A stretch of DNA of 64,000 bases from Kiritimatiellia bacterium. Lineage in GTDB: Bacteria; Verrucomicrobiota; Kiritimatiellia; CAIQIC01; Lenti-01. The notes beneath the pieces were generated by a model that was given only the letters and a program-made list of their open reading frames with translations, did not search any database and had not been told where the DNA came from. Position numbers and translations under genes: made by a program. The stretch is from NCBI GenBank assembly GCA_028681135.1, contig JAQUJC010000004.1, positions 8,107 through 72,106 of the forward strand, read 5' to 3'. Positions 8,720-50,704 of this stretch are shown in pieces. Numbering within the stretch: position 1 is the first letter of the stretch; each line of letters opens with the position of its first letter.

Positions 8720-8815
8720 GAGCTACTCCGCATCATGTATTACGTAATACATACTACCGGGTCAGCCGTCAAGCCCCTTTCCAATAATTAGAGTCTTGGG
8801 TCTCCCATTGCGCGG

Positions 8816-8927
8816 TTTTCCATAGCGTGGAAAAATCACGAAAAAGTTTTCCATAGCGTGGAAAATTCGCCCAAACGTTTTCCATAGCGTGGAAAAAACG
8901 CAAAAAAGTTTTCCATAGCGTGGAAAA
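8816..8927. promoter_or_regulatory. Array of four identical 19-bp palindromes (TTTTCCATAGCGTGGAAAA) at an exact 31-bp period, lying in the divergent PadR / Ser-Thr-kinase intergenic region. It is a putative multi-site operator.
   Basis: The units start at 8816, 8847, 8878 and 8909. The palindrome is perfectly conserved while the 12-bp A-rich spacers diverge. The 31-bp period is about three helical turns. Confidence 0.7.
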
Positions 8928-9093: not shown

Positions 9094-11394
9094 ATGGAAA
9101 CTGACACTCGGTCATCTGCTCACCCCGACCTTCCGGGCTATGAGATTCAGCAGCGTCTGGGCACTGGGGGTACGGCCACGGTCTGGCTGGCCCGACAGAT
9201 ATCCCTTGATCGCGTCGTGGCCATCAAGGTGCTGTCCCCCAAACTGCTAACCGACCAGGACGCCCGAACTCAATTCCAGGAAGAAGCGCGCGCGGCCGCC
9301 AAAATTTCGCAAGCGGCCATTGTCAGTATTCTGGATTTTGGGGAACACGACGGCCGCCTGTACTATGTCATGGAATATGTGGCCGGCACCAACCTCGCCG
9401 AATGGATACAGCAAAATCAGCGCATGGCCCACGGCCAGGTGCTCAAACTCGCTGAGATCATCGCCAACGCGCTCGACGCGGTGTGGCGCGAGACCTCCCT
9501 GATCCACTGCGACATCAAACCCGGCAACATCTTGCTCGGTGCCGATGGGGCGGTCAAGCTGACCGACCTGGGACTCGCCCGCATTGCCGGCTCCGCCGCC
9601 ACCCGCAGCGTCTCCGAAAATATTGAGGGGACCCCCTCGTACATTGCGCCCGAACAAATCGAAGGCCTCGAGCCCGACTGTCGCTCCGACATCTATTCGC
9701 TGGGCCTCAGCCTCTACCATCTTCTTACCGGCAACCCGCCCTTTGCCGATCGTGCCCTTCAGGATATTCTCGACGCCCAACAATCCGATTATCTCCCCGA
9801 TCCCTGCGACCTACTGCCGCGCCTGCCGGTCTCCTACGGGTGGTTATTGGCCAAAATGACCGCCAAAAACCCCGCCAAACGCCCGCAAAATTGGAGCGAA
9901 GTGCTCAAGGACCTCCACCAGATCAAGACTGGCAAATCGCCCCTGCCGCCCTATCCCGGCGAAGACGAAAGCACTATCCTGCTCAATCCCCGCCATCGCC
10001 CCGCCGCGCGCGCCAATACCATCAACCTATCCGCCGCCGGCAAAAAGGCCATCACGGTCTCCGCGTCCCACAACGCCCTCATCAGCCAACAGAAGCGCGG
10101 CTCTGCTTCCGCGCGGGCATCTTCCGGCGGGGGCTGTCTCCGCTTCCTGTTCTTTTTGATATTTTTGGCTGCCGTTCTGGGGGGCATCTGGCTATTGGCC
10201 TTCAGGAACCACCCCGAGCGCGTGGCGCAGCTAAAGGCCGTCCTCCAAGGCCACCCCCCACCCCCCCCCGCCCAGGCACCCGAACTGCAGCAACGCGACT
10301 CTGACCCGCCCCCCCCCGCTCCCGCGCCGGTCGAGTCGGTCGAGGAGGGGCCAGCCGCGGAACCCGAATCGTTGTCCGCCAGTACCGGCACCGTCACCCC
10401 CGGTGCCTGGAACCATCCCGGGTTCATCCAGGCCGCCAATCTCTTCAACGAAACTCTCACCCAATATCAGCAGCACCTGAAAAAGCCCGATCCCGCCAAT
10501 CCGGCCCTGCCTGGTCTGATCGCCGATGCCCAATATGCGGCCTTGCTGTTTGAAACCATCCGCGCCGACGCCCCCGACTCCGTGCCCGTCACCCACTATG
10601 CCAACCAGTGCTATCAACTGGTCAACGATCTGCGCCGCGCGCGCATGACGCTGGATGCCAAGCGCAATCGGCATGATCTGGCCCCCAAAAAACGTCATCC
10701 CGAGCTAGCCCCCTACCCCCTCCCCGAGGGTGACTCCACCGACCCCTTTGCGATGCACCACGGGCAATACGGCTATGCCTGGGATACCCTGCCCGCCCCG
10801 ATTGATCGTCCGGAGACGACCGAATTTATTTTGCTGCTCTCCGCCATTGCCACCCCCTCCCCCGACACCCGCATCCAATCCGGGTCGTATTTGCATGGCC
10901 CCTTGCGCGGCCTTGTGAGCCTGGAGGAGGCCCGTCGCCTCTTGAAGGTGCCCCCCGAACCCCGGACCCCCATCGAAGGCGCCCCCTTCCCCTATGGTGG
11001 ATTCTTCCAGACCACCTACCCCGCCAGCAAGCTCGGCTCCATCGGCCCCGGACAGCCGACCTATCCGCATATCCGGTTGATTACCGACGCAGAAGACCAA
11101 CTCGTCGCAGTTCAGCTCATTGATGAACACCCCGCCCCTCCCCTGCAAACGTCTCCGATGGCCTTTTCCACGGCCTCCCAGATCATGGACTTTGTCACCG
11201 GCCGCACGCTGCCCTCGAAGGGCGACATTCGCGCCCACCACAACACCCTGCGCGGCACCGGCACCTTACGCATTGACTCCGAAGTCGCCGATTTTGCCTC
11301 AGAATCCGATCCCACGCCAGTATTCCGCTCTGTGCTGCTGCTGCCCCAGCCCGTCGCCAACAATTTATTGTATCATCTGATGGGCACTCGCTAA
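9094..11394 (+). CDS. Hanks-type serine/threonine protein kinase. It has one TM helix and a ~380-aa C-terminal extracytoplasmic domain of unknown type.
   Basis: Kinase motifs are present: GTGGTATVW (glycine loop), AIK, HCDIKPGNILL, DLGLAR and GTPSYIAPE. A TM helix (LRFLFFLIFLAAVLGGIWLLAF) and a Pro-rich linker follow. The start is placed at the METDTR ATG (9094) because the track start at 8920 would lie inside the operator array. An alternative start is at 9042. Confidence 0.8.
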   Translation: METDTRSSAHPDLPGYEIQQRLGTGGTATVWLARQISLDRVVAIKVLSPKLLTDQDARTQFQEEARAAAKISQAAIVSILDFGEHDGRLYYVMEYVAGTNLAEWIQQNQRMAHGQVLKLAEIIANALDAVWRETSLIHCDIKPGNILLGADGAVKLTDLGLARIAGSAATRSVSENIEGTPSYIAPEQIEGLEPDCRSDIYSLGLSLYHLLTGNPPFADRALQDILDAQQSDYLPDPCDLLPRLPVSYGWLLAKMTAKNPAKRPQNWSEVLKDLHQIKTGKSPLPPYPGEDESTILLNPRHRPAARANTINLSAAGKKAITVSASHNALISQQKRGSASARASSGGGCLRFLFFLIFLAAVLGGIWLLAFRNHPERVAQLKAVLQGHPPPPPAQAPELQQRDSDPPPPAPAPVESVEEGPAAEPESLSASTGTVTPGAWNHPGFIQAANLFNETLTQYQQHLKKPDPANPALPGLIADAQYAALLFETIRADAPDSVPVTHYANQCYQLVNDLRRARMTLDAKRNRHDLAPKKRHPELAPYPLPEGDSTDPFAMHHGQYGYAWDTLPAPIDRPETTEFILLLSAIATPSPDTRIQSGSYLHGPLRGLVSLEEARRLLKVPPEPRTPIEGAPFPYGGFFQTTYPASKLGSIGPGQPTYPHIRLITDAEDQLVAVQLIDEHPAPPLQTSPMAFSTASQIMDFVTGRTLPSKGDIRAHHNTLRGTGTLRIDSEVADFASESDPTPVFRSVLLLPQPVANNLLYHLMGTR

Positions 11395-12135: not shown

Positions 12136-12654
12136 CGGTCGTCGGGACTGGCAGGGGTGCGATTGGATATTGATTTGATGACGCAGCACAAATGGCCATG
12201 CCGCCATTACGGTCTTTCCCTTTGAACCGGGACCGGGAAGGGTATCAGACAGCTACGGATTTCGCGGATGAAAAATGGGGGGACCAGACCGGGACGGGGT
12301 CGTCCCGGCTCCATTCCAATCGTTTTTGGAGCCCCTGACGACCTCGTCGGAGGATGATCCCGGACGGCATGCGGCTCCGCCATCGCCGACAGGCTGTCCC
12401 TCACAAAATCGTATTTGTGTCCATCGGTGTTCATTCGTGGTTGGGTTGTCCCCCCCCCTTCCAGTCATGGTGAGCGCAGTCGAACCATCGCGGAGATTCC
12501 TCGACCGGCTCCATGCTATGGAAACCCCGGCTCTCGTAGCGTGGACCTCCCGGTCCGCGCCTCTTCCCGTTCCGTTGCGCGGCTTCTTCTGTTCGGCGCG
12601 GACCAGTGGTCCATGCTACGGGGAGCCCCTTCCCTGTTTTCATATAATCCATAT

Positions 12655-14222: not shown

Positions 14223-17200
14223 CTACTCCACGTACCGAATACGGAAGAACTTGGTGCCCCGACCGGGTGCGGGCGACACCGTGTTAGTATAAACCCCAGG
14301 CTGGGTGACCGCCGCCCGGAATTCCTCTTTCCACCCGCCTGGGGCCAGATTGGTGGCCGATTGGACCACGACGACTTTAGGCATGAGGCCAAGCACCTCG
14401 TAGGTCAACAAGAGCTGCTCTCCACTCTTCACCAGTGGTCCAACTGTCAGTTTAGGAATAGCCAGGGGCGCTGGATAGGTTTGGGTGGGATCTCTTCCCT
14501 GCGCAAAATTATCAATGTCTTTCCAGCCATCGCCACTCAAGTTGGACTGACCGTTCATGGTGGTGAGATTGCCCGCATAGCGATATTCATACGAGTCGAC
14601 GATTCCATCGTTATCGGTATCGGCATCGTAGATGACCAGATCGTTACCTGAATATTCGGCTAAGTTCCTGATCTTTATCCGTTTTTCAGCATAATCCACG
14701 CTATAGATAGTTGGGGTGTCAACGGTCCGGTCGTCCCGGCTGCCCTTGACCAACCCCCAGTTCTCGCCTTCATCCAGCACGCCATTGTTGTTTCGGTCGT
14801 AGAAGGCACGGACATGGAAATCACCAATCTCAACCCCCATCAGACTATACTCCCAATAGCCCGACCGGGGAATGGCCAACGCCTTGATCAAGACGCCGTT
14901 GCCGGAATACGCTTCGGCCACGATCTGAGCGTTAGATTCCCATCCATAGTAGTAAATGCGCCCCTTAATCATGGCGGCCCCGCCCTTTGCCGGCGGCTTG
15001 AAGCTCACCGCGAAATTCACCCAGTCGCTGGTGACGGATGCGCGCGGGTTGTAAGCCCGGACCTGGATGCGATACTGGCCATTCGTGAGAGCTCCGAAGC
15101 CAGCCAGCAACGGCAAATCAATTTCCGCATTCCCATCCAGGTTCACATAAGGCCGGTATTGGGTGGTGTTCAACACCGTCTGACCCGTTGCCGCATTCTG
15201 GATTTGAATCTGAATCCTGGTGGTATTAGGGTCCAGTTTCATGCGCAGTTTTTCGCGGGCAAAAATAAGATTGCCCGTCGGATATTCAACCACCGGCTTC
15301 GCTAGGGAGGACGGATAGGCGATCGCATTGGTCCCGCTGGCGAACACAACGCCATCGACAGTTCCAACCGTCCACTCATAGGAGCCGTACATCGGCTCGA
15401 TACCGCCCAGTTTCAGATCCATTTCCATAATGTTCGGGCGGCCCAGCGACTCAAGGTTGCGGGTGGTCGAGTAGATGATCGGTTTGCCCGCCTCGCTCAG
15501 CGCTTTGATCGCGACCCGGTAGGTGGTTCCAGCGACGTGCGCGATCGCCTCTTGAATCGCACCCATCTGCTGTTCCCAGGAGAAACGAATATATCCGGCG
15601 GGCTTGTCAGTTAGAGGAATCTTGATGTTCACTGCACCCAACTGGATGTCTTCTATACCGCTCTCGCTAAAGCCGAGCCACTCACCTGCATTCCACTTGC
15701 CATCGGCATTCATATCGATAAACGCCATGAAAATATTGGGACCTTTGTGTACATGGCCAATCGACCATTCAGTGACAGTTGCCATCGTTCCACTTTCAAA
15801 GACGCTTTGGACGGGAATCAGGACTTGAGCGTCTGGTGCCTGCATTTCAAGATCGGAAAAGGCCCACACAATCAAAGCCACAGCATCCGGCTCCAGATAA
15901 CCATCATCTGATATCTCAAATTCGGTAGCCACTACATATTCAAGAGCTTGGCCATAAAAATTGAACTTAAACTGGGGCAAAGGAAACGATTTTCCATCGT
16001 CTGGCCTTGTCGGGGATACAATGGTTCTATCCACAATTTCCCATTGGACATCCCAAGTTTGATTGCTTGCTATCCAGTTTGATACTGCTTGATAGCTATA
16101 ATCAACACCGGTTCCCAGATACTCGGACAAGTTATCCCAGCCATCGTTATCTGGATCGAGGTTGGGATCGTATCGCCGCGGGCTGCAGGCTAGCGGGAAG
16201 ATCGACTCCCAGGCATCGGGCATTTTGTCGGTATCCGTGTGCAGGGTGCCATAGGTCGCACCAGTGGTGGGGCTGTCATAGTCGCCTCGACCATCGCCAT
16301 CGGAATCGAATCGATTGGGATCAGTTCCGGCCTGCAATTCCGCCCAGTTGTTCAGACCGTCGTGGTCTGGGTCGCCCCAGGCACCAAAAGTGAAGTCGGC
16401 CGGGTCGTAGACATAGCCGACCTCGTCGCCAGGCGAGCTATTCCCATCGGGGTCCATGCCATTCAAGATATCCCACCAGTTGGGAATGCCATCGTAGTTG
16501 TTGTCTTCCTGGAAGGGATATTCGGCCGGATCCAACTCTACGAACTGGACATCGCTGATCATTTGACCGGCATAATCCCAATCCAATGGATTCTGGTAAT
16601 CTTCCAGAGTGAACCCGCCATCATCCGCCGGATAATAGCCGGCTAAGGCCAACCGATAGATCTGGATGGGATCCGTGAGGATCGAGGGATAATCGCCGGT
16701 CTCCATGCGCATGGCCGGAAAAATATACACTCCCGGTTCCTCTGCGTTGTCCTTTACTATTGCGCGATCTTCCGCCAACTCGCTGCGCTGGAAGTCAAAG
16801 TTGAAGTAGGTGATCAAACCGGGTTCGTTGCCGTACAGGCTTTGCTTGTTATAGAGGTTCAGCTCTCCGCGGGACAAACCGCGATTCCAGACCCGGACTT
16901 CGTCGGCATCGGCCGCAAGCTGATGGCCAATCGAGAGCGGACCTGCCAGGCTGCGAACCCCCCAGTTCACAATTTTCTCTCCCAAGGGCACCAGGGTAGG
17001 ATCCTGGACGGCATCGATGATTCCATCTACATATAAGGCCGCCTTGTTGGCATCACGCACATAGGCGACATGATGCCACTCCCCATCATTAATGGGCATG
17101 GCCCCGACGATATTATTGACGGTGGGATTCAAGATGACCTCAGACTCATCGATCACACCTTCTTCCCCTTCTTCCTCCTTGGTATAGGCGAGCACCCAGC

Positions 17201-20200
17201 GTCCGATCAGGGTGCCATCGGATTGCATGCCGAGATAATAGTTAAAATCCTCGCCGCCGAGATCGGTACCGGTATTCCAGCGGGCGATAATCGTTCCAGG
17301 CGACTGGCTCGTTGTTTTCACCCAGGCTTCCAGCGTCCAAGTGTCCAGGGAATCGATTGTAATGCCGGTAACGGGGTCCGCCGTCAAGCAGTTCTGCCGC
17401 AAATGATCATTGCCGCCGGTGGTGCGCAGGACGGCTGGATCCAAGGCGCCGTAGCCCAGGAACAGGTTGCGGCCCTTGAAGGCGGCAATTTCGGCATCCG
17501 AGCGGGAAATGGCCCAAACGCGGATTTCCTTGAGGTCGCCTACATATCCATTACCACCGAACACGAGGTCGCCAGGGCCTTGGGCCGGGACCAGTGTGGC
17601 GGGGCCATAGTTATTCCGCTTGCCATCCACAAACAGCGACAACACGCCCGTCGCCAAATCAAAACGAGCCGCCACATGGGTCCATTCGGAGAGCGCCAGG
17701 GGCGTCAACCCAACGATTTCCTTGATGACTCCGCCCGCGCCGCTTTGGAAGCGCACATAGGGCATGGCGTTGGTAGTCAATCCCAGTTCATAGTTGATCC
17801 GGCCTGTGGCTTGAACCTGGCGCGAGACCAAAGAAACGCGAGTGGCCGGATAGGCGGCCGGGCGAACCAGCGCTTCGATCGTCCAGTTGGTCAAGCTGTG
17901 GCGTTCGGTCTCTTCCAAGCCGATCTTGTCGCTAACCACCACCTGCCCGACACCCCCGCCATCGCCAAATCGCAGCGCCCGGAAAATCATCGGGCTGTAG
18001 GAACGCCTTGGATCACTTTCCCGATTATCTACCCCACGGACTTCGTCCCCATCGTTAATTTCATCGTCATCGGTATCCATTCTGGTGGGATCCGTGAAAT
18101 AGATATTCAACTCGTCATAGTTGGACAGGTCATCGCCATCGGAATCCCAATCGGCGTCGGAGATAATGCCGGCGGGATCGAGTGAGAACTCGTTGAACGG
18201 ATCGACCCCCAGTCTGTAGGACCAATAGTTGTTGATGCCGTTCCCGTTGGGATCCAGGTTGGCAATGGAGTCACCCAACGGATCGTACCCGTATTGCTGG
18301 TACCACCAATCGGGAATGCCATCGCCATTGGAGTCATAGACTGTGTTGGTTCCCGGTCCGGCCCCATCCCACAATTCAACAACGGAGTCGATGCGCGCAA
18401 AACGCAACGGCAGCAAGTCATTGAACAATGGCGACTGGGTGGCGGGGTCGAATGCCCGAGCGACCGGATACACATCGGGGTGGCGCTCCATCCGGTAAAA
18501 ATTGGCATGATAGTAGCCAAGGTTGTAAGGGTTAGCGGTATTCGGGAAGGAGCGGGTCAGGGTGTTGTCTGCCAGCGAATAGGTGGAGGTATGGTAGGGA
18601 GAATCGGCGGGAGGATCGAGCGGCAGCCGGGCGACAAGGTTAACGATCCAAGGAACATACAGGTAGTTGTTGTACACCAGTGACCGATCGGCGGCCGTAC
18701 CCCACCACGGAACATGGGGATAGGAACCATCGTTCGGGCGTCCATTTAGAAGATCAAATCCAACCGGAAGAATGCCCTCGCTTGAGGGGTCCAGCAGGTT
18801 GTCGAAGTTATAGAGATACTTGAGTTCGGGCGTGGCATTGGTGGACAGCAGCGGACGTTGGTACGTCTTGACATCGGCCATGCGCAACTTGCGAGACATG
18901 TCGCGTTGCACTTCTGTCATGGTTTTTGCGCCATTCCAAATTCGAACTTCATCCACCCACCCTACAAGGAAGCTGTGCAGATCCGGGGCCGTGAAGGTGG
19001 TTCCCGCCTGAGATCCGACCCAGACCGGCTGGCCATTGACCCGGCCGACGGGATTGCGGTCGGCAGCGCCGACCACGAGCGGGGCATCAAACGTGAAGCC
19101 AGGATTGACATCCAGATAAATCGGATCCGGCGTGGACCAGCCATTGGCAGGACGCTCGGCGGAAGCAATACTCGCACGCATTTCGCCGTTCACATAGAGG
19201 AACAATTTCTTTTGGGCACCATCGTAGACCCCGGAGAGGTGCTGCCACCGGTCGGCTTCCAGCGGGTGGATGCTTTTGGCGATGACATCCTGATACTCGA
19301 GTCCGTCAAAGCCCGCACCTGTATAGGAAACCAAAGGTCGTCCATCGGCATCGATCGCCAGCCGGAAGTTGCGGCGAATGCCTTCCGGAAAACTCATGAC
19401 GTTTCCATCGGGAATCCAGACTGGGCGTTCAACCACGACTTGGAGCGCGCCGGAGGCGGGCTCCACAGGCTTGACCCACGCCTCGACCGTGAATTCGGTC
19501 AGATCGTTCAAGCCATGCAGGAAACTGCCCCGGGTACGAGCGGCGGCATCGCCGTTGAGGTACAAAGCACGGCGGCGCGGTGGTGCCTCCGAACTCAACG
19601 GATCAGTGCTGCCCGGACTTGCTTGCGAATCCACGAGTTCGGCCCGGTCGCCCAGCATGTCGGCATCAGTGTCGAAACCTTCGGAATTTTCGAACGAGAA
19701 CAGATAACTGGGCGGTGTCCAGCCCGAAGGGCCGTAGTACCATCCGGGTGCCAACAAGGCTAGAGAACCCAGGTCGTAGTACAGGTTTACAAAGCTACTC
19801 TGATAGCTGGGGTCGGTGATCCAGGAAGGGGATGGGTCCGTATGATAATACTTGGGCGGGGGCGCATTGGGTTGAAGCGATTCCTCCCAGTTGGGCAATC
19901 CGTCCTGGTCAGGATCGGCAAAGGGCGACCCCGCAACATAGGGGGCCACACGGATGTCAAAGGTGGGGGGCATCCCCGCCAAGACCGTTGCGCCCAAAAC
20001 CATGGAGTTGTGCACATCCAGTACGCCAAACATAGGATTGAGACCGTGGTAGATCTCCCAATAGTCATCCATGCCGTCGAGATCGGTGTCGAGAAGCCGA
20101 GGATTCGTCGAGGTGTAGCGGCTGTTAACGGGTGGGATGAAGAAGAACGGCACCGTATTGACATTGAGGTGCCAATCCCAGGCGAAAGGAGTCCCGGTGA

Positions 20201-22268
20201 AAAAGGCGAATGGATCGTAACCGCCGAGGGGCTGGCCAGGGACCCATTCGGTGTAGCGCCAGTGGTGAACGGCTCCAGACAGATACTCCTGATAATTGAC
20301 CAATCCGTCTTCATCATAGTCGCGGGCGGCATCCTTGACCGTACCATCCATGCCATTGCGCAGATTCTGGTCCGCCAGATCATAGATACGCGAACGGTGC
20401 GCTGTAATCGCTTCCCAGTGGTCGGGAATGGCATCGCCGTCGGTATCGACGGAAGTGGGATTCAATCCGCCGCCGACATAGCAGCTTCCGTTCCATTCCA
20501 CGGTTCCTCCGGCATACTTCAAGACCGCCAAACCGCCGGACACATCTTCGCCCTCCACGACGTCCAAATCCTTGTATCCGCCTTCGGCGCCGTCCACCAC
20601 GCTATCGCCGTCGGTGTCGTCCACGTTGGGATCGGTGGGCCACACCTTGTTGAGCCAAGCGGGATCGAAATGGGTGCGGCCGTTCGGCCACGACGCACCC
20701 CGAATCAGATTGATGTCGTACGCACTGAATTCCATGAAATTGTTCAAGCCATCGTTATCCCCATCCTCCTGGGCGTCGTCCTTGTTCAGGGGATCCAGAC
20801 CCACATAGAGTTCCCACCCGTCGAAAATTCCGTCGCCATCCGAGTCGATAATCATGGGATCCAAGGCATAGCTGTTGAAATTATCGCAGTCCAGCACGCC
20901 CTTAATGAACCCAAGGTACAGCGACGCCAAGAACTTTTCACGACTGGTGAAGGGAATGGTGTTCTCCTGCCCCTTGAGTTCCCGGGTGCTTCCTTTCCCT
21001 AGATAGTTTTCGCCCCACGCGGTGCGCGGATCATACCCCAGGTCGGCATAGACTTGGCCGTGGCGACGTTCTGCCCCGGCACCATCGTCGGTATAGGCCA
21101 TGTAATCATCGGACGGACTACCACCCGCATCCTCCGGGTCAATGGGGTTGAGTCCCTTCCGGATTTCATAGCCATCGGACATTTCATCTGCGTCGGTGTC
21201 CCAATGGAAGGGATCGGTGCCTGCGATGAATTCATCCAAGAAGAAAGCACAATCGGCGTCGAGGTCACCGCTGGCATCGACAGTCAGTTCCGCGCCAAAA
21301 ATCGCCAGCATGTCATTCGCGGGAATGGGCAACACCGGAATATCCCAGTTCACCGTGGGATCAAACGAGGCCAAGTCCAAGGCGACGCCCTCAAAGGGGG
21401 GCGTGGGCACATTCACCAGCGTGCCATAGAAATAGTATTTCCAGCCATCGGATATTCCATCGCCCGCAGTGCTGATCAGAGTGGGATCGGTACCCGGATC
21501 GTCATTGATCCCGGTCAGCGAATTCAGCCCATACCAGCCATCGAACCCGCGCGCCTGGAACCAGTTATTAAACGGGATCACGCCGATATAATACTGGGGC
21601 GGACGCACGCCCGTGGTTGGGAAACGATAGGGCCAATCGGTGTTCAGACCCGCCAGTGCGGCAGGATAATTTCCCGACGAGAATACATTCATCGCACCGG
21701 GTTCCCACCCGCCTGGCATTTTGTCATCCGTCGGATTGCCAGTTGCGCCATTGTCACCCGTCGGATCTTCCGGGTCCAATCCATACGTGACTTCCCATAC
21801 ATCGGGCAGACCGTCCAGGTCCAGGTCTCCCACCCCCTCACCGGCTTGATACTCATGGCTTAAGAGCAGCTCGATTTCCTTGTCTTCCCCACCTACACTT
21901 AGCGTGATTGATACGGGATGGGGTGGTTTTCTATCTACGTATGATTCGGGGACATCACCTAGCCATTTGTATACAAAGCTATCCCGCCCACCCACCGGCA
22001 CAGGGTTCGCAGTGATTTTCAACACGGCATTGCTGGGCACCGACATAAATGCAGGATTTCCCGTCATCGTAGGGCCAGCCGGGAGTAGCTGCTCAATGGT
22101 AATCGTCCCCCCACCTAGTCCCGTCAACCCTTCATAATAATCCAGGGCGCTGACAACAATCACATTGTCTTGGGCAACGGCCACAGAGCCCACCAGAAGC
22201 GTGCCCGCTAAAACACCCAACAAACAAAAATGGAATGACTTCTTCATTTTATTCTCCTGCTTCGCCAA
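14223..22268 (-). CDS. Giant secreted protein (2681 aa). It contains multiple LamG/concanavalin-A-like domains, many thrombospondin-type-3-like Ca-binding Asp-rich repeats, and a C-terminal ~60-aa module shared with the downstream giant paralog.
   Basis: There is an N-terminal signal peptide (MKKSFHFCLLGVLAGTLLVGSVAVAQ). Repeated DxDxDGxxDxxE motifs occur (DSDGDGIFDGWE, DTDGDAIPDHWE, DGDNDGLNNFMEF). LamG-type signatures are present (FTVEAWVKP, WTIEALVRPAA, WTLEAWVKTTS). The C-terminus reads ...YEVLGLMPKVVVVQSATNLAPGGWKEE...GVYTNTVSPAPGRGTKFFRIRYVE. Confidence 0.8.
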   Translation of the reverse strand: MAKQENKMKKSFHFCLLGVLAGTLLVGSVAVAQDNVIVVSALDYYEGLTGLGGGTITIEQLLPAGPTMTGNPAFMSVPSNAVLKITANPVPVGGRDSFVYKWLGDVPESYVDRKPPHPVSITLSVGGEDKEIELLLSHEYQAGEGVGDLDLDGLPDVWEVTYGLDPEDPTGDNGATGNPTDDKMPGGWEPGAMNVFSSGNYPAALAGLNTDWPYRFPTTGVRPPQYYIGVIPFNNWFQARGFDGWYGLNSLTGINDDPGTDPTLISTAGDGISDGWKYYFYGTLVNVPTPPFEGVALDLASFDPTVNWDIPVLPIPANDMLAIFGAELTVDASGDLDADCAFFLDEFIAGTDPFHWDTDADEMSDGYEIRKGLNPIDPEDAGGSPSDDYMAYTDDGAGAERRHGQVYADLGYDPRTAWGENYLGKGSTRELKGQENTIPFTSREKFLASLYLGFIKGVLDCDNFNSYALDPMIIDSDGDGIFDGWELYVGLDPLNKDDAQEDGDNDGLNNFMEFSAYDINLIRGASWPNGRTHFDPAWLNKVWPTDPNVDDTDGDSVVDGAEGGYKDLDVVEGEDVSGGLAVLKYAGGTVEWNGSCYVGGGLNPTSVDTDGDAIPDHWEAITAHRSRIYDLADQNLRNGMDGTVKDAARDYDEDGLVNYQEYLSGAVHHWRYTEWVPGQPLGGYDPFAFFTGTPFAWDWHLNVNTVPFFFIPPVNSRYTSTNPRLLDTDLDGMDDYWEIYHGLNPMFGVLDVHNSMVLGATVLAGMPPTFDIRVAPYVAGSPFADPDQDGLPNWEESLQPNAPPPKYYHTDPSPSWITDPSYQSSFVNLYYDLGSLALLAPGWYYGPSGWTPPSYLFSFENSEGFDTDADMLGDRAELVDSQASPGSTDPLSSEAPPRRRALYLNGDAAARTRGSFLHGLNDLTEFTVEAWVKPVEPASGALQVVVERPVWIPDGNVMSFPEGIRRNFRLAIDADGRPLVSYTGAGFDGLEYQDVIAKSIHPLEADRWQHLSGVYDGAQKKLFLYVNGEMRASIASAERPANGWSTPDPIYLDVNPGFTFDAPLVVGAADRNPVGRVNGQPVWVGSQAGTTFTAPDLHSFLVGWVDEVRIWNGAKTMTEVQRDMSRKLRMADVKTYQRPLLSTNATPELKYLYNFDNLLDPSSEGILPVGFDLLNGRPNDGSYPHVPWWGTAADRSLVYNNYLYVPWIVNLVARLPLDPPADSPYHTSTYSLADNTLTRSFPNTANPYNLGYYHANFYRMERHPDVYPVARAFDPATQSPLFNDLLPLRFARIDSVVELWDGAGPGTNTVYDSNGDGIPDWWYQQYGYDPLGDSIANLDPNGNGINNYWSYRLGVDPFNEFSLDPAGIISDADWDSDGDDLSNYDELNIYFTDPTRMDTDDDEINDGDEVRGVDNRESDPRRSYSPMIFRALRFGDGGGVGQVVVSDKIGLEETERHSLTNWTIEALVRPAAYPATRVSLVSRQVQATGRINYELGLTTNAMPYVRFQSGAGGVIKEIVGLTPLALSEWTHVAARFDLATGVLSLFVDGKRNNYGPATLVPAQGPGDLVFGGNGYVGDLKEIRVWAISRSDAEIAAFKGRNLFLGYGALDPAVLRTTGGNDHLRQNCLTADPVTGITIDSLDTWTLEAWVKTTSQSPGTIIARWNTGTDLGGEDFNYYLGMQSDGTLIGRWVLAYTKEEEGEEGVIDESEVILNPTVNNIVGAMPINDGEWHHVAYVRDANKAALYVDGIIDAVQDPTLVPLGEKIVNWGVRSLAGPLSIGHQLAADADEVRVWNRGLSRGELNLYNKQSLYGNEPGLITYFNFDFQRSELAEDRAIVKDNAEEPGVYIFPAMRMETGDYPSILTDPIQIYRLALAGYYPADDGGFTLEDYQNPLDWDYAGQMISDVQFVELDPAEYPFQEDNNYDGIPNWWDILNGMDPDGNSSPGDEVGYVYDPADFTFGAWGDPDHDGLNNWAELQAGTDPNRFDSDGDGRGDYDSPTTGATYGTLHTDTDKMPDAWESIFPLACSPRRYDPNLDPDNDGWDNLSEYLGTGVDYSYQAVSNWIASNQTWDVQWEIVDRTIVSPTRPDDGKSFPLPQFKFNFYGQALEYVVATEFEISDDGYLEPDAVALIVWAFSDLEMQAPDAQVLIPVQSVFESGTMATVTEWSIGHVHKGPNIFMAFIDMNADGKWNAGEWLGFSESGIEDIQLGAVNIKIPLTDKPAGYIRFSWEQQMGAIQEAIAHVAGTTYRVAIKALSEAGKPIIYSTTRNLESLGRPNIMEMDLKLGGIEPMYGSYEWTVGTVDGVVFASGTNAIAYPSSLAKPVVEYPTGNLIFAREKLRMKLDPNTTRIQIQIQNAATGQTVLNTTQYRPYVNLDGNAEIDLPLLAGFGALTNGQYRIQVRAYNPRASVTSDWVNFAVSFKPPAKGGAAMIKGRIYYYGWESNAQIVAEAYSGNGVLIKALAIPRSGYWEYSLMGVEIGDFHVRAFYDRNNNGVLDEGENWGLVKGSRDDRTVDTPTIYSVDYAEKRIKIRNLAEYSGNDLVIYDADTDNDGIVDSYEYRYAGNLTTMNGQSNLSGDGWKDIDNFAQGRDPTQTYPAPLAIPKLTVGPLVKSGEQLLLTYEVLGLMPKVVVVQSATNLAPGGWKEEFRAAVTQPGVYTNTVSPAPGRGTKFFRIRYVE

Positions 22269-32806: not shown

Positions 32807-33691
32807 CTACACCGTATCCATGAAAGTCCGCTCCACGCGGTTAAAAACCGCCATGCCCAGCAGCAGCAGCAGCACCGTAAATCCCCCTGAATAGGCCAAA
32901 TAAGCCCACGAAAACACCCCCGTGCCGAAAAATCCGTAGCGGAACGTCTCGACAATGGCCGTCAGCGGATTGGCGGCAATGATCCAACGGTAGTGGTCTG
33001 GCATGGTCGACAGCGGATAAATCACCGGCGTGGCATACATCCATAACTGCACCCCGAAGCCCACCAACACTTGTAAATCACGGTATTTTGTCGTCAGCGA
33101 TGAAATAATCACCCCGAAGCCCAAGCCCAAGCCCGCCATCATCAGCAGCAGCAGCGGCAGCAGCCCCACCGCCCAATTGGGCTGAATTGGCGCGCCTTTT
33201 GCCCAAAACAGGCCATATACGAACAGAAAAAACGTAAATTGAATGGAAAAAGCGATCAATTGCGACATCACGACGGAAACCGGCACCACCATGCGCGGAA
33301 AATACACCTTCCCGAAAATTCCCGCGTTGGCAATAAAGGTGTTGGAGGTGCGCGTCAGACAGTTGGCAAAGTAGCTCCAGACCGTTGTCCCGGCCATATA
33401 AAAGACGAATTGCGGCACTTTGTCAGTCGGCAGCCCCGCAATGCGCCCAAACACCACCGTAAACATCAGCGTGGTCAGCAACGGTTGGATAATGTGCCAC
33501 AGGGGTCCCAGAATGGTCTGCTTGTACGACGCCACGAAATCGCGGCGCACAAACAGCCCCATCAGGTCGCGATAACGCCACAAATCCTTAAAATGCAGGT
33601 CAAACCAGCCCTTGGGCGGCTCGATGACCAAATCCCAACCGTTTGCGTCTGTCTGGAGTGCCATAGCCGGAAAATATCCCAAAGCCCCCAC
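32807..33691 (-). CDS. ABC-2 type polysaccharide/O-antigen export permease (Wzm/KpsM/TagG family). No cognate ATPase gene is adjacent.
   Basis: The 294-aa product has six predicted TM helices and the ABC-2 signature region (FVRRDFVASYKQTILGPLWHIIQPLLTTLMFTVVFGRIA). An alternative start is at 33664. Confidence 0.75.
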   Translation of the reverse strand: MGALGYFPAMALQTDANGWDLVIEPPKGWFDLHFKDLWRYRDLMGLFVRRDFVASYKQTILGPLWHIIQPLLTTLMFTVVFGRIAGLPTDKVPQFVFYMAGTTVWSYFANCLTRTSNTFIANAGIFGKVYFPRMVVPVSVVMSQLIAFSIQFTFFLFVYGLFWAKGAPIQPNWAVGLLPLLLLMMAGLGLGFGVIISSLTTKYRDLQVLVGFGVQLWMYATPVIYPLSTMPDHYRWIIAANPLTAIVETFRYGFFGTGVFSWAYLAYSGGFTVLLLLLGMAVFNRVERTFMDTV

Positions 33692-33721
33692 GGGAAGTCA
33701 ATCGCAGACGCCACAGCGCGA

Positions 33722-34214
33722 AGATGGATACCTTTGGAGAATGCTTCGGGAAAGCAGGAAGGCCGGAAAAAGCAGTTTTGGGACCGATTTTGATGGTTTT
33801 TGGGGATGAAAATGCGCAAAATCGGACAAAACACCAGGAAAACCGCTCTTTTTAGCCCATTTTAGCCTCAATGGGGCAAAAATCTCTATTTTGAGCATAT
33901 TTCGCGCCGTTTTTTCCTGCAATGCCCGCCAGCGGGCTCTCTGCTGTGGAAAACGCCGACATAGACGCCCCTCCCCTTGTTCAATTTCCCTGTTCACACC
34001 TTGTCTCGGTTATTATTATATGTGAGACAAGCTGGAAATTGAGTTCACCTATCTACATGGTGGGCAGGATAATAGATGGCAGTCTCGGTTATTATTATAT
34101 GTGAGACTCGGGGGCTCATATGGCGATTGGGACACACGTTGCCCCGTCTATTTTGTTTGCGGTTCCAATCAGGTGATTATGGAATGAGTGTCTTGTTTCG
34201 GACGTCAGGCAGCT
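33722..34214. repeat. Copy 1 of a ~492-bp segmental direct repeat. It is upstream of the Wzm gene and downstream of the GT-C gene.
   Basis: It is ~97-99% identical to 35938..36428. It contains a ~150-bp low-GC tract and two 26-bp AT-rich palindromes. Confidence 0.85.
34003..34107. promoter_or_regulatory. Pair of 26-bp AT-rich palindrome-ended motifs (GTCTCGGTTATTATTATATGTGAGAC), 79 bp apart, inside repeat copy 1.
   Basis: The motifs sit at 34003-34028 and 34082-34107. The same pair recurs at 36217-36242 and 36296-36321. Each has GTCTC/GAGAC inverted ends around a 16-bp AT-only core, in a GC-rich genome. Confidence 0.55.
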
Positions 34215-34322
34215 GTCCGCCCGTGGAGGAAATGGCATGGCTGGGCCCCCTTTGGAGAATGCATCTGGAAATCAGGAAAAGGAGACACAGTCGAGCGGCC
34301 ATTTTTTGAAAGGATTAACCGG

Positions 34323-35612: not shown

Positions 35613-35937
35613 GGCGGGATGTTTACCAAACTCGCGCCCCCCTGACCACGCGATTTTTGTAAGGGCTGGTGGTGGGTGGTCCGTGGTTTTGGAATTGCGC
35701 GCCCAATGACAACTTAGACAGTGTCCGCTCGAGCGGCCGGGCCCAGCGCAGACTGTTTGGAAATACACACGCAAAAACCAGGCTCTGCACGATAAAGTCG
35801 GCCTGGATCAGCATGCGCCATGCCCATGCCGGACACACTAGCCTGCATTATTCAGGCTAGGTGCGCCCCTGGGCGCGCCAGATCGGGGGCAAATCGTACA
35901 GCCGCCGCGCTCATCGAGCCCAGCACCATGGCCCGAA

Positions 35938-36428
35938 GACGGAAACCTTTGGAGAATGCTTCGGGAAAGCAGGAAGGCCGGAAAAAGCAGTTTTTGGGCC
36001 GATTTTGATGGTTTTTGGGGATGAAAATGCGTAAAATCGGACAAAACACCAGGAAAAACGCTCTTTTTAGCCCATTTTAGCCTCAATGGGGCAAAATCTC
36101 TATTTTGAGCATATTTCGCGCCGTTTTTTCCTGCGATGCCCGCCAGCGGGCTCTCTGCTGTGGAAAACCCCGACATAGACGCCCCTCCCCTTGTTTGATT
36201 TCCCTGTTCACACCTTGTCTCGGTTATTATTATATGTGAGACAAACTGGAAATTGAGTCCATTTATCTAACTGGTGGGCAAGATAATAGATGGCAGTCTC
36301 GGTTATTATTATATGTGAGACTCGGGGGCTCATATGGCGATTGGGACACACGTTGCCCCGTCTATTTTGTTTGCGGTTCCAATCAGGTGATTATGGGATG
36401 AGTGTCTTGTTTCGGACGTCAGGCAGCT
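35938..36428. repeat. Copy 2 of the ~492-bp segmental direct repeat, lying between the divergent GT-C and GT2 genes.
   Basis: See copy 1. It contains the palindromes at 36217-36242 and 36296-36321. Confidence 0.85.
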
Positions 36429-36747
36429 AACGATCTACTGGTTTTGAGCAAACAAATAGTCGTGGTCTTCAAGTCTTTCGACTAGGCAATAGCCGAAATC
36501 TGCCAGTATGGACCACCGCTTCGTGCCGTGTTGCAATAATCGTCTGAATATAGTCTTCACCGGCGTTTGGCGCATATATTTTCGCCACCTCCCCATTTGT
36601 CATTTTCTGGGCGCTTGTAAGCTGAAAAATGAAATCTGGGGCGCTTTGGGAAAGGATGATTTGGTTAGTCAATGGATTTTGGGCTGGCGTCGAGGTGGCG
36701 TCGAGGCAAATGGACATTGGTCATGGGGGATGGTACACTTTCTGGCC

Positions 36748-37737
36748 ATGTCGAAAACACCTCACCTAACGATCATTGTACCGGCCTACAATGCGGCGAA
36801 GGATTTACCAGCGTGCCTGGAATCGCTTTATGCACAGACGGTGGCAATTCGCATTCTGATTGCGAATGACGGGTCCACGGACGATACTGCGGCGGTTGCC
36901 GATGCGGCGGCACGGTTGGAGATCGTGAGGGTGCTCCATCTCCCCCATTCGGGTGCCAATGCTGCTCGTCAAGCCGCCTTAGAGGCCGTTGATACCCCCT
37001 ATTTTGCTTTTGTTGATGCAGATGATGCATTGGAGCCGACCTTTGCTGAGGAGATGATCGAAGCCGCGGTGCGGCATAAGGCTGATTTGGTGTTCTGTCC
37101 GTACATTTGCGTGTATGACCGCGTTGAGCGGCACGTGTCGTATGGCGGAGAAGGAGACGCCTTCGCACGAGATGCTCACCCCCTTCGCAAAACACCTAAT
37201 TTGCTAGTGTCCGTTCCCGTCTTTTTTTGGGGAAAGCTGTTTCGCACTGAGTATGTTCGACCCCACATAGATTTTGCCCCTAAGGAATGCGCCCCGATGG
37301 AAGACATTCCGACGATCATTCCGCTTTTGATTGACATGCCGCGTATGGCCAAGGTTGCGACGCCGCTATATCGCTATGCTATTTCATCCGATTCTATGTG
37401 TCGGGTTTCCAAGCAGGAGCTTACCCGTATAGTGGCATTGCGCACATTGCATGAGCGTCTGGAGGCGATCGGGGCACTGCCGACGTTTTTGCCGCAATTG
37501 TATGCAATTAATCGGTGCTATCTTTTCGACCAACTGGAAAAATTGCGAGGGTATTGCGACCCGGCACATCAGCACCGCGTGATACGTGACTATTTCCGGC
37601 ATTTGGAAGGCACGCTGCCTGGCTGGCGCCCGCATCCGTTCCATCCGACGTTCTACGCAGCCTATTGGCATGGAGTCGTGGCGTGGAATACGTTGCGGAA
37701 TAGATTCACCCGACGGGGCAAGGATGGCGAAGACTAG
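36748..37737 (+). CDS. Family 2 glycosyltransferase (GT-A fold).
   Basis: The start at MSKTPHLTIIVPAYNAAKDLPACLESL is followed by ANDGSTDDT and a DADD (DxD) motif. The track ORF from 36508 has an implausible N-terminal extension. Confidence 0.75.
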   Translation: MSKTPHLTIIVPAYNAAKDLPACLESLYAQTVAIRILIANDGSTDDTAAVADAAARLEIVRVLHLPHSGANAARQAALEAVDTPYFAFVDADDALEPTFAEEMIEAAVRHKADLVFCPYICVYDRVERHVSYGGEGDAFARDAHPLRKTPNLLVSVPVFFWGKLFRTEYVRPHIDFAPKECAPMEDIPTIIPLLIDMPRMAKVATPLYRYAISSDSMCRVSKQELTRIVALRTLHERLEAIGALPTFLPQLYAINRCYLFDQLEKLRGYCDPAHQHRVIRDYFRHLEGTLPGWRPHPFHPTFYAAYWHGVVAWNTLRNRFTRRGKDGED

Positions 37738-39063: not shown

Positions 39064-39168
39064 GGGTGGCCCTTACTGAATGGCCGACGAGCAAAAACCG
39101 CCCGACGGGGTCGTCGGGTCTCCATGGAAAACAAAAACCACCGAATTGGAGCTGGAACAGCGGGACCT

Positions 39169-39619
39169 CGTGGCGGTCTTCGGCTCACCCGGAGGGTTCG
39201 CCCTACCTGGGGCAAAGTCCGGCTTTGGGTAGTGACGCCGCACTGTCGGTGTCCGTATAAATTGCCAACCTGACCGCCCGGTCGGCACGGAGGTCGCCCC
39301 TCTAGACCCCCTAATCTGTGTCCATTTGTGTTCATCCGTGGTTCACCTGTCCGAAACTGGAGCCGACACGATCCCGTGGCGGTCTTCGGCTCACCCGGAG
39401 GGTTCGCCCTACCTGGGGCAAAGTCCGGCTTTGGGTAGTGACGCCGCACCGTCGGTGTCCGTATAAATTGCCAACCTGACCGCCCGGTCGGCACGGAGGT
39501 CGCCCCTCTAGACCCCCTAATCTGTGTCCATTTGTGTTCATCCGTGGTTCACCTGTCCAAAACTGGAGCCGGCACGATCCCGTGGCGGTCTTCGGCTCAC
39601 CCGGAGGGTTCGCCCTACC
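39169..39619. repeat. Tandem repeat with a 206-bp unit. There are two near-identical full copies (39169-39374 and 39375-39580) and a ~39-bp partial third copy. Each unit contains a family-C hairpin arm (cggctcacccggagggttcgccctacc...gggtag).
   Basis: Landmarks cgtggcggtcttcgg sit at 39169, 39375 and 39581. Landmarks ctaatctgtg sit at 39311 and 39517. There are only ~3 mismatches between the full copies. A degenerate partial copy also precedes position 39169. Confidence 0.9.
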
Positions 39620-39662
39620 GCAGACAACATCTGGAACATTTGGAATTGCGTCAGAGGGATGT

Positions 39663-50379: not shown

Positions 50380-50545
50380 GCGAAGGTGGGTCAATTGAAA
50401 CCTTCTCCCGTTCCCCCTTCTCCCCCTTTGCAGCTTGGCGTCTTTGCGTGAGATGCCTTCCCTCTTCTCTGAACATCTGTGTTCTCTGTGGTAAAATTCA
50501 GCTTCCCGGCTATTCTTTCCTGAGTTCATGAGTTCAGATTCATTT
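50380..50545. repeat. Dispersed intergenic element, family A, copy 3. A short variant sits at 50313..50337.
   Basis: It reads gcagcttggcgtctttgcgtgagatgcc...ttcctgagttcatgagttcagattcatttg. Confidence 0.6.
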
Positions 50546-50704
50546 GAAATTGGAAATTGATATTGGATATTGTACCTGTCTCTGTGACTTCCGACCTCCG
50601 ACCTCGGCCCCCCCCCCAGTTCTTTTTCGCGTTCTTCGCGCCTTTCGTAGTTTCTCCGTCGAGTTCTGGCTTGTCCCGATTTTCGACTGTTTCCACCGGG
50701 CGGT

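Follow-up and report, generated by a model that had tools for sequence, protein, structure and literature searches.

A 26-nt sequence, GTCTCGGTTATTATTATATGTGAGAC, occurs as exactly four exact matches in the window (the whole 64-kb stretch of Kiritimatiellia DNA that was analysed), all on the + strand (starting at positions 34003, 34082, 36217 and 36296) and arranged as two pairs, one in each copy of a duplicated non-coding cassette of about 498 bp that lies on both sides of a single GT87-family glycosyltransferase gene. The feature is non-random and mildly conserved, and it is more elaborate than the first-pass annotation of this DNA had recognised, consisting of a module with bent DNA in two copies, one on each side of a single gene. 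The 26-mers are tentatively read here as sites bound by a protein and as part of a cis-regulatory module that is portable, a reading preferred at well short of even confidence. The parts of the locus are as follows (positions in the window, with the strand where one applies).

32807..33664, - strand: wzm, gene for an ABC-2 permease (Pfam PF01061), downstream of cassette A
33673..33701, - strand: wzm promoter, TTGACT-17-(TGG)GATATT, ending 8 nt before the ATG and independent of the cassette
33719..34217: cassette A, non-coding, from the GT87 stop codon to the wzm promoter; 100% identical in contig L002 and 93-97% identical in contigs L049/L061
33719..34002: phased A/T-tract segment of cassette A, intrinsically bent DNA
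34003..34028, + strand: 26-mer, cassette A copy 1; exact match with extended arms TTGTCTC/GAGACAA, unchanged in 4/5 cassette copies and with one substitution in cassette A of L061
34029..34081 (cassette A) and 36243-36295 (cassette B): 53-bp spacer, the most variable part of the cassette
34082..34107, + strand: 26-mer, cassette A copy 2; exact match, unchanged in 5/5 cassette copies
34108..34217 (cassette A) and 36322-36431 (cassette B): 110-bp arm beyond the pair, within the duplicated unit; 9 of 107 columns vary
34249..34278: partial third copy (30 bp, 90% identical) of the cassette end motif CCTTTGGAGAATGC.TC.GGAAA.CAGGAA, conserved in contigs L039, L049 and L061
34323..35612, - strand: gene for a GT87-family glycosyltransferase (Pfam PF09594), flanked on both sides by cassettes
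35934..36431: cassette B, in the divergent GT87/GT2 intergenic region (1.1 kb); present in L061, with about 67 bp left in L049
35934..36216: phased A/T-tract segment of cassette B, intrinsically bent DNA
36217..36242, + strand: 26-mer, cassette B copy 1; exact match
36296..36321, + strand: 26-mer, cassette B copy 2; exact match
36751..37737, + strand: gene for a GT2 glycosyltransferase, divergent from GT87 and with its own promoter at 36711-36739

Sequence and architecture of the duplicated cassette

No match to GTCTCGGTTATTATTATATGTGAGAC with three or fewer mismatches was obtained in 100 shuffles of the window, and a scan of the window at up to 10 mismatches gave no fifth 26-mer above the shuffle background. 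The first-pass annotation had listed four copies, including those at 36217-36242 and 36296-36321, and had placed two in each of two duplicated cassettes, 79 bp apart (79/10.5 = 7.5 helical turns); exact matching and the recovery of two cassette copies of about 498 bp (33719-34217 and 35934-36431) confirmed all of this, and its remark that the sequence between the paired 26-mers is AT-rich also held (43% GC for the 53-bp spacer against 59.9% for the window, with 35% for the 26-mer itself). Its description of a 16-bp stretch of pure A/T was wrong, since the 16 nt between GTCTC and GAGAC read GG-TTATTATTATAT-GT and the pure A/T run within them is only 12 nt, and its figure of more than 60% for the GC content of the genome is to be set against the 59.9% measured for the window. 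Direct inspection shows an imperfect palindrome: 9 of the 13 position pairs of the 26-mer are self-complementary about a dyad that falls between positions 13 and 14, the arms lie 21 bp apart from centre to centre, and the first 26-mer of each pair extends to TTGTCTC...GAGACAA. The sequences bordering the two 26-mers of a pair are mutually dissimilar, though the 26-mers are identical.

Cassettes A and B are direct repeats that share about 96% identity, and both have the same orientation relative to their downstream genes (wzm and GT87, respectively). Full copies of the end motif are found at 33731-33760 and 35946-35975. Neither the cassette ends (AGCTGCC... and ...TCTTCG) nor the ends of the 105-bp unit formed by two 26-mers and the spacer showed terminal inverted repeats or target-site duplications. 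The spacers of A and B are homologous (87% identical, 53 bp each), and this homology, together with the lack of cas genes, led to the rejection of a CRISPR mini-array as an explanation.

On one side of each pair, 284 bp contain 13-14 tracts (14 in cassette A) of four or more A or four or more T, phased at 10.2-10.4 bp (R about 0.9, p<0.001 vs random placement), and in a sliding scan of the 64 kb the cassettes were the only strongly phased A/T-tract regions. The phased segment of cassette A stops 18 bp upstream of the -35 hexamer of wzm, and that of cassette B lies about 290 bp from the nearest promoter. The adjoining phased bent DNA fits the idea of a nucleoprotein or nucleoid-protein site. 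Distant relatives give similar phasing scores where the GT2 gene preceding GT87 encodes its Phe-rich C-terminal membrane domain (phased T-tracts). The cassette was also considered as a pseudogene relic of this GT2 domain, and this was rejected: an nhmmer profile built from seven relatives gave no cassette match at E up to 10, and the pairwise similarity between the cassette and the GT2 C-terminal coding region is compositional.

Conservation was assessed in an alignment of five cassette copies from three closely related strains (93-97% identical). The 26-mers had 1 variable column of 52 (0/26 and 1/26), the spacer 11 of 53 and the flanks 40 of 392 (9/107 and 31/285), which corresponds to Fisher p values of about 0.03 for the 26-mers vs the rest (51/445), 0.07 for the 26-mers vs the flanks and 0.04 for the spacer vs the flanks. 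No indel was found in the 105-bp unit in the five copies, so that the 79-bp spacing is invariant, and indels occur elsewhere in the cassette. The sites and their spacing appear preferentially conserved; the constraint on the 26-mers appears real but weak, with marginal p values (0.03-0.07) from closely related sequences. The A and B copies of L061 share variants (columns 87-100), and variants common to A and B within one genome indicate gene conversion.

The genes wzm, GT87 and GT2 each have a proximal promoter of their own, and the flanking genes therefore need no promoter from the cassette. The wzm promoter is kept in about 10 relatives that lack the cassette, the GT2 promoter (TGGACA-17-(TGG)TACACT, followed by 8 nt and the ATG) has the same layout as that of wzm, and a similar proximal promoter was recognised by eye for GT87. 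A group promoter pattern (TTGACT-N17 with TGn, GAnnnT, 8 nt, ATG) derived here recovers the wzm and GT2 promoters; the 26-mer was examined as a promoter and rejected, as it misses this pattern. Distances from the 26-mers to the start codon are about 340-445 bp for wzm and about 605-710 bp for GT87. The spacer holds a sigma-70-like sequence, TTCACC-18-GATAAT, on the + strand (34044-34073), of which the -10 hexamer GATAAT is retained in 5/5 copies and the -35 hexamer is variable, within the most variable part of the cassette. Inspection of the 26-mer by eye gave no sigma-54 match, and a search by eye for Fur/PerR-type 7-1-7 boxes, DnaA boxes and the IHF consensus gave only one weak, non-significant IHF-like match (34167-34179). 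Pfam domains of the approximately 38 ORFs of the window included no regulator-type DNA-binding gene, and no recombinase or transposase gene, Y1 transposase included, was found in the 64 kb.

Coding and RNA functions were examined in the same sequences. No ORF is common to the cassette copies, a 1-nt T-run indel disrupting ORFs of 36 aa and 99 aa; the 99-aa ORF of cassette A had no homologue among 5.8 billion proteins, and an 18-aa ORF after copy 2 accumulates non-synonymous changes. Rfam gave no match at the gathering threshold, the cassettes stayed without a match when E was relaxed to 5, and no tRNA or tmRNA genes and no convincing terminator were found. Folding of the minus strand gave moderate z values of -3.35 for a 121-nt region and -3.2 for the whole cassette, and each 26-mer can form a weak hairpin (-3.7 to -6.2 kcal/mol; stems of 5-6 bp, loops of 14-16 nt). 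RNAalifold on the five copies gave 0 compensatory pairs, a positive covariation term and several broken stems; a conserved RNA structure was rejected, and two seemingly wobble-preserving changes in L049 failed in L061.

Distribution of the cassette and a palindrome pair in a sister lineage

Strain variants of the locus were fetched via the members of the GT87 protein cluster, of which a 429-aa member is annotated at NCBI as Kiritimatiellae bacterium; relatives of wzm at 76-89% amino-acid identity are in Verrucomicrobiota and Kiritimatiellia MAGs. In the near-identical MAG GCA_028704045.1 (contig L002), cassette A is unchanged and the contigs break on both sides of the interval comprising GT87 and cassette B, and contigs L039 and L040 terminate inside both cassettes. 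A JGI contig, L061, carries both cassettes, with three exact 26-mers and one with a single substitution. In contigs L049 and L050, cassette A is 93% identical and its two 26-mers are exact, and of cassette B only the last 67 bp or so are present, so that L049 keeps GT87 without a 26-mer pair upstream of it. The cassette is absent from two sister lineages (GT87 at about 87-89% nucleotide identity), which have different neighbour genes. In distant relatives GT2, GT87 and wzm are contiguous, with a gap between GT87 and wzm of 14 bp in L042, 33 bp in L012/L013 and 166 bp in L041, from which it follows that the cassette is a recent insertion into a formerly compact operon. To judge from these contigs, the cassette appears to be carried by a narrow strain group only, and the locus appears to be a recombination mosaic in which the neighbours of GT87 differ in each sister lineage. 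Other small insertions were seen nearby, namely a 19-bp palindrome and, in L049, a 195-bp segment with inverted ends.

Outside the flanks of GT87, neither the 26-mer nor the cassette was found in the window or in 70 fetched loci, and no match to either was found in genome, metagenome, viral, plasmid and phage collections, which largely lack this organism (the metagenome set misses the known positive L061). The first-pass annotation had named two observations that would speak against a regulatory site, a motif confined to the duplicated cassette with no effect on expression, and a match to the end of an IS or MITE. The motif is confined to the cassette in everything searched, with collections that largely lack the organism, which agrees with one half of the first of these observations, and the ends of known IS or MITE elements gave no match.

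In three contigs of a sister lineage (L051, L053 and L060), a perfect palindrome, CGGTGTTTATAAACACCG, occurs twice, 143 bp apart, in the corresponding place downstream of GT87, with a short phased A-tract stretch after it. The same palindrome is present on 11 metagenome contigs (L062-L072), usually paired at a distance of 87-145 bp around unrelated A/T-rich spacers. At least four of its loci share nothing else with L051, their neighbours being genes for RecN/SMC-like proteins, RpiB/DeoC, an acyl-ligase/acyltransferase and CinA, and loci other than those of L051, L053 and L060 are without bent DNA. Because it stands beside unrelated genes, CGGTGTTTATAAACACCG behaves as a dispersed repeat and not like part of a glycan regulon. 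No homology of the cassette or the 26-mer to the L051 non-coding region or to CGGTGTTTATAAACACCG was demonstrated, the alignments falling within the range of shuffled controls. Both arrangements consist of two identical A/T-centred palindromes in direct orientation around a variable A/T-rich spacer; they differ in that CGGTGTTTATAAACACCG is a perfect palindrome of 18-24 bp, of unlike sequence and with no significant alignment to the 26-mer. By analogy, the dispersed CGGTGTTTATAAACACCG pairs favour a repeat element over an operator specific to glycan genes.

Candidate roles of the 26-mers

In the reading that we tentatively prefer, a dimeric sequence-specific protein would occupy each 26-mer, with the half-sites GTCTC and GAGAC two helical turns apart on either side of a flexible A/T centre. 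The pair of sites at its constant 79-bp separation, together with the adjoining 280 bp or so of bent DNA, would give a nucleoprotein complex, and this complex, lying upstream of the flanking genes' own promoters, would tune their transcription. The fourfold exact repeat, the dyad symmetry, the conservation of sites and spacing, the adjoining bent DNA, the consistent orientation and the GATAAT of the spacer all speak for protein binding, and the RNA and coding alternatives found no support. Against it stand the own proximal promoters of the genes, the L049 GT87 gene without an upstream pair, the marginal conservation, the lack of a regulator gene in the 64 kb and of further sites in the searched data, the dispersed CGGTGTTTATAAACACCG analogue and the separation of 79 bp, which at 7.5 turns is a half-integral number and unsuited to simple looping. 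No relevant publication on a GTCTC/GAGAC operator emerged from a literature search. The proposal of the first-pass annotation, a site for a dimeric or looping regulator or for a nucleoid protein that would control envelope polysaccharide genes, is partly supported: the 26-mers and their spacing are the best-conserved parts of the cassette in the five copies and bent DNA adjoins them. It is weakened by the half-integral number of turns and the absence of a regulator gene from the window, and its part on the polysaccharide genes by their own promoters and by the L049 GT87 gene.

The close rival is a small repeat or mobile element, non-autonomous and REP/BIME, IS200/IS605-type or Neisseria dRS3/NIME-like, that would consist either of two 26-mers with the 53 bp between them or of the entire 0.5-kb cassette, an account that is possible and to which we give a little over a quarter of our belief. 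Such an element would have entered the glycan operon before being copied, its 26-mers would serve as recognition hairpins or sites of a transposase or recombinase whose gene lies elsewhere, an influence on regulation would be a by-product, and the direct 0.5-kb repeats would leave GT87 prone to loss or exchange by recombination. It agrees with the cassette being an insertion (GT87 abuts wzm in L042, L012/L013 and L041), with the presence of two full copies besides a partial one of 30 bp and a truncated one of 67 bp, with the breaks of short-read assemblies in or near the cassettes, and with the mosaic locus, in which the GT87 flanks differ per sister lineage and other small insertions (the 19-bp palindrome and the 195-bp L049 segment) lie nearby; the CGGTGTTTATAAACACCG pairs, found at the same position in a sister lineage and at no fewer than four other loci by unrelated genes, have the spacer as the variable part, as the cassette does. 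It is opposed by the lack of terminal inverted repeats and target-site duplications on the cassette or the 105-bp unit, of a transposase or recombinase in the window, of copies beyond the GT87 flanks in the window, the 70 loci and the collections (which largely lack the organism), and of demonstrated sequence homology to CGGTGTTTATAAACACCG, and for the REP/BIME or IS200/IS605 type in particular by a hairpin of just -3.7 to -6.2 kcal/mol and by the failure to find a Y1 transposase in the window or any other copy. Both readings may be right in part, since a copied module could have 26-mers that bind a protein. A broader proposal, which we consider unlikely, would unite the 26-mer pair with the CGGTGTTTATAAACACCG pairs in a class of Kiritimatiellia elements not yet described, in which two identical direct A/T-centred palindromes enclose short, variable, promoter-like A/T-rich cargo. 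Such elements would move from one intergenic site to another and bring in promoters and operators or rewire them; here one such element would have seeded a bent-DNA cassette that was later copied around the glycan gene.

The remaining accounts are given less weight than the repeat element. That the 26-mers have no function, being the neutral relic of a local 26-bp duplication that was copied with the cassette and kept identical by recency and gene conversion, is doubtful, at roughly one chance in seven in our judgement; it is in keeping with the A/B variants common within one genome, the marginal conservation excess and the closeness of the compared strains (93-97% identical), and it is opposed by the invariant spacing, by a spacer diverged at 21% of its columns and by the dissimilar flanks of the paired 26-mers, which imply an exact duplication or a total decay of the flanks that spared the 26-mers. 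It is improbable, in our estimate, that the 26-mers are core sites of a site-specific recombinase (10-6-10 or 12-2-12), at which recombination of A with B would excise or reinsert a 2.2-kb GT87 segment and switch a glycan modification on or off. A 26-bp imperfect palindrome with the asymmetric A/T centre TTATTA has the typical geometry of a core site, the direct repeats surround a single surface-glycan gene, the adjoining bent DNA resembles the accessory sequences of res, cer and attP, and MAG assemblies lose precisely the interval of GT87 and cassette B; yet no recombinase gene is present in the 64 kb, the five cassette copies are collinear with no excised or inverted junction in any strain contig, the repeat alone explains the contig breaks, and the palindrome extends to just 9 of 13 positions. 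Least credible of all is a role in RNA, as two 26-nt hairpins and the intervening region in a 5' leader or in a small RNA from the cassette: the minus-strand z values (-3.35 and -3.2) and the possible weak hairpin per 26-mer favour it, against which stand the absence of any Rfam match even at E up to 5, the RNAalifold result on the five copies (no compensatory pairs, positive covariation term, broken stems), and stems of 5-6 bp with loops of 14-16 nt and no convincing terminator.

If the 26-mers are operators, they would provide a first handle on the regulation of a highly mosaic surface-glycan locus in an uncultured Kiritimatiellia lineage, and the 26-mer would serve as a defined bait with which to isolate the regulator. 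If they belong to a repeat or recombination module, they would help to explain the shuffling, loss and re-promotion of single glycosyltransferase genes between strains. The practical consequence is modest either way, the element being confined, as it seems, to a narrow strain group.

Comparison with known systems

Among known recombinase core sites (hix, 26 bp; res site I, 28 bp; dif, 28 bp; loxP, 34 bp), the 26-mer finds its likeness in length, imperfect dyad, asymmetric A/T-rich centre and arrangement as direct repeats bracketing a gene; it differs in that no recombinase gene is present in the window, no recombination product was seen in the strain contigs and there is no sequence similarity. 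The Neisseria dRS3/NIMEs are 20-bp repeats with inverted ends that flank variable segments of 50-150 bp near surface-antigen genes, and they, like the REP/BIME families, reach tens to hundreds of genomic copies. The cassette shares with them short inverted-end repeats around a variable segment, an intergenic position, a surface-structure locus and a mosaic gene content, whereas only two cassette-borne pairs were seen here and the sequences are not similar.

Upstream curved DNA made of phased A-tracts stimulates bacterial promoters or recruits nucleoid proteins (H-NS), as in the case of C. perfringens plc; to our knowledge, no nucleoid protein is known for this phylum. The cassette segment is far longer than the classic examples, and that of cassette B is about 290 bp from the nearest promoter, but the 13-14 tracts at 10.2-10.4 bp over about 280 bp, ending in cassette A 18 bp upstream of a -35 hexamer, are of the same kind. 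Paired (auxiliary) operators of looping repressors and activators are known for GalR (OE/OI), LacI (O1/O3) and NagC/Mlc. Unlike these, the 26-mers are half-integral turns apart (79 bp), lie 340-710 bp from the nearest start codons of genes with their own promoters, and have half-sites two turns apart rather than one. In common with operators of the GalR, LacI and NagC type, they are near-identical, partly palindromic, A/T-centred sites placed tens of bp apart, at a fixed spacing, around a promoter-like A/T-rich stretch.

Surroundings of the GT87 gene

By comparison with locus L043, the sister lineage (L051) and a strain variant (L061), the GT87 gene was delimited as a conserved island (window 34329 and about 35660). 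Homology to the sister lineages ends no more than about 10 bp past the GT87 stop codon on one side and about 46 bp ahead of the GT87 start on the other, and the genes outside the island vary by lineage, being GT4, methyltransferases, wzm, or a block of 326-aa, DUF364 and kinase genes, the last of these neighbour types being located at 9-14 kb in the window. No wzt ATPase gene was found after wzm in the window; one is present in the relative L042. Two giant ORFs lie downstream of wzm:

14223-22268 (-), giant ORF, 2681 aa
22984-31914 (-), giant ORF, 2976 aa

The gene call covering the 2976-aa ORF in L002, a contig of the near-identical MAG, carries Peptidase_S8/fervidolysin-like and CarboxypepD_reg domains.

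Small insertions were also observed. Relative to strains L039 and L040, 19 bp are inserted at window 35838-35861, making a perfect hairpin, CTAGCCTG-AATAAT-GCAGGCTAG, with GC arms, an A/T loop and flanking CTAG; this is a small palindromic indel polymorphism. In one strain, an insertion of about 195 bp (L049:2553-2748) lies between cassette A, one of the duplicated non-coding modules, and the wzm promoter, with imperfect inverted ends of 21 bp and a duplicated sequence of about 10 bp, TCCG.CTTCG, on its flanks.

Promoter layout of the glycan genes

In this group, promoters apparently have their extended -10 element, TGn with a hexamer of the form GAnnnT or TAnnnT, 8-10 nt upstream of the ATG, and a Shine-Dalgarno sequence is absent:

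33673-33701 (-), window, extended -10 promoter
36711-36739 (+), window, extended -10 promoter
Relatives L005-L013 and L041, extended -10 promoters upstream of wzm

This spacing, together with the missing Shine-Dalgarno sequence, suggests that the glycan-gene mRNAs are leaderless or near-leaderless.

Repeats in intergenic DNA

A 206-bp unit is repeated in tandem (2.2 to nearly 3 copies, 98% identical) at window 39164-39634, between the GT4 and AlgX-like genes, and the array is one unit shorter in L001, a contig of the near-identical MAG. Directly upstream of a Ser/Thr protein kinase gene, the 31-bp unit GTTTTCCATAGCGTGGAAAAATCGCAAAAAA, which includes the inverted repeat TTTTCCA-N5-TGGAAAA, occurs 3.6 times (window 8815-8927); L043 keeps part of this repeat, and it looks like an operator array. 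Tandem heptamer arrays (GAGACTN, CAACCTG, CCAATAT, GGACCTC) are frequent in intergenic DNA of the group, GAGAC/GTCTC being a recurring building block:

L012:7664-7753, 10866-10950 and 12178-12287, heptamer arrays
L013:11877-11988, heptamer array
L009:8841-8901, heptamer array
Window 50542-50605, heptamer array

A complementary array often follows, so that a long hairpin could form.

Palindrome pairs of the sister lineage and metagenome contigs

The sequence (GTA)CGGTGTTTATAAACACCG(ATA) is a perfect palindrome, paired in direct orientation 87-145 bp apart:

L051:5971-6157, sister lineage, palindrome pair
L062-L072, metagenome contigs, palindrome pairs (examples L067:2732-2841, L065:1545-1686, L068:107-215)

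The spacers are A/T-rich and mutually unrelated, and the pairs are carried at several unrelated intergenic loci, the host metagenome contigs having 54-67% GC. The pairs look like a dispersed palindrome-pair repeat of a kind previously undescribed.
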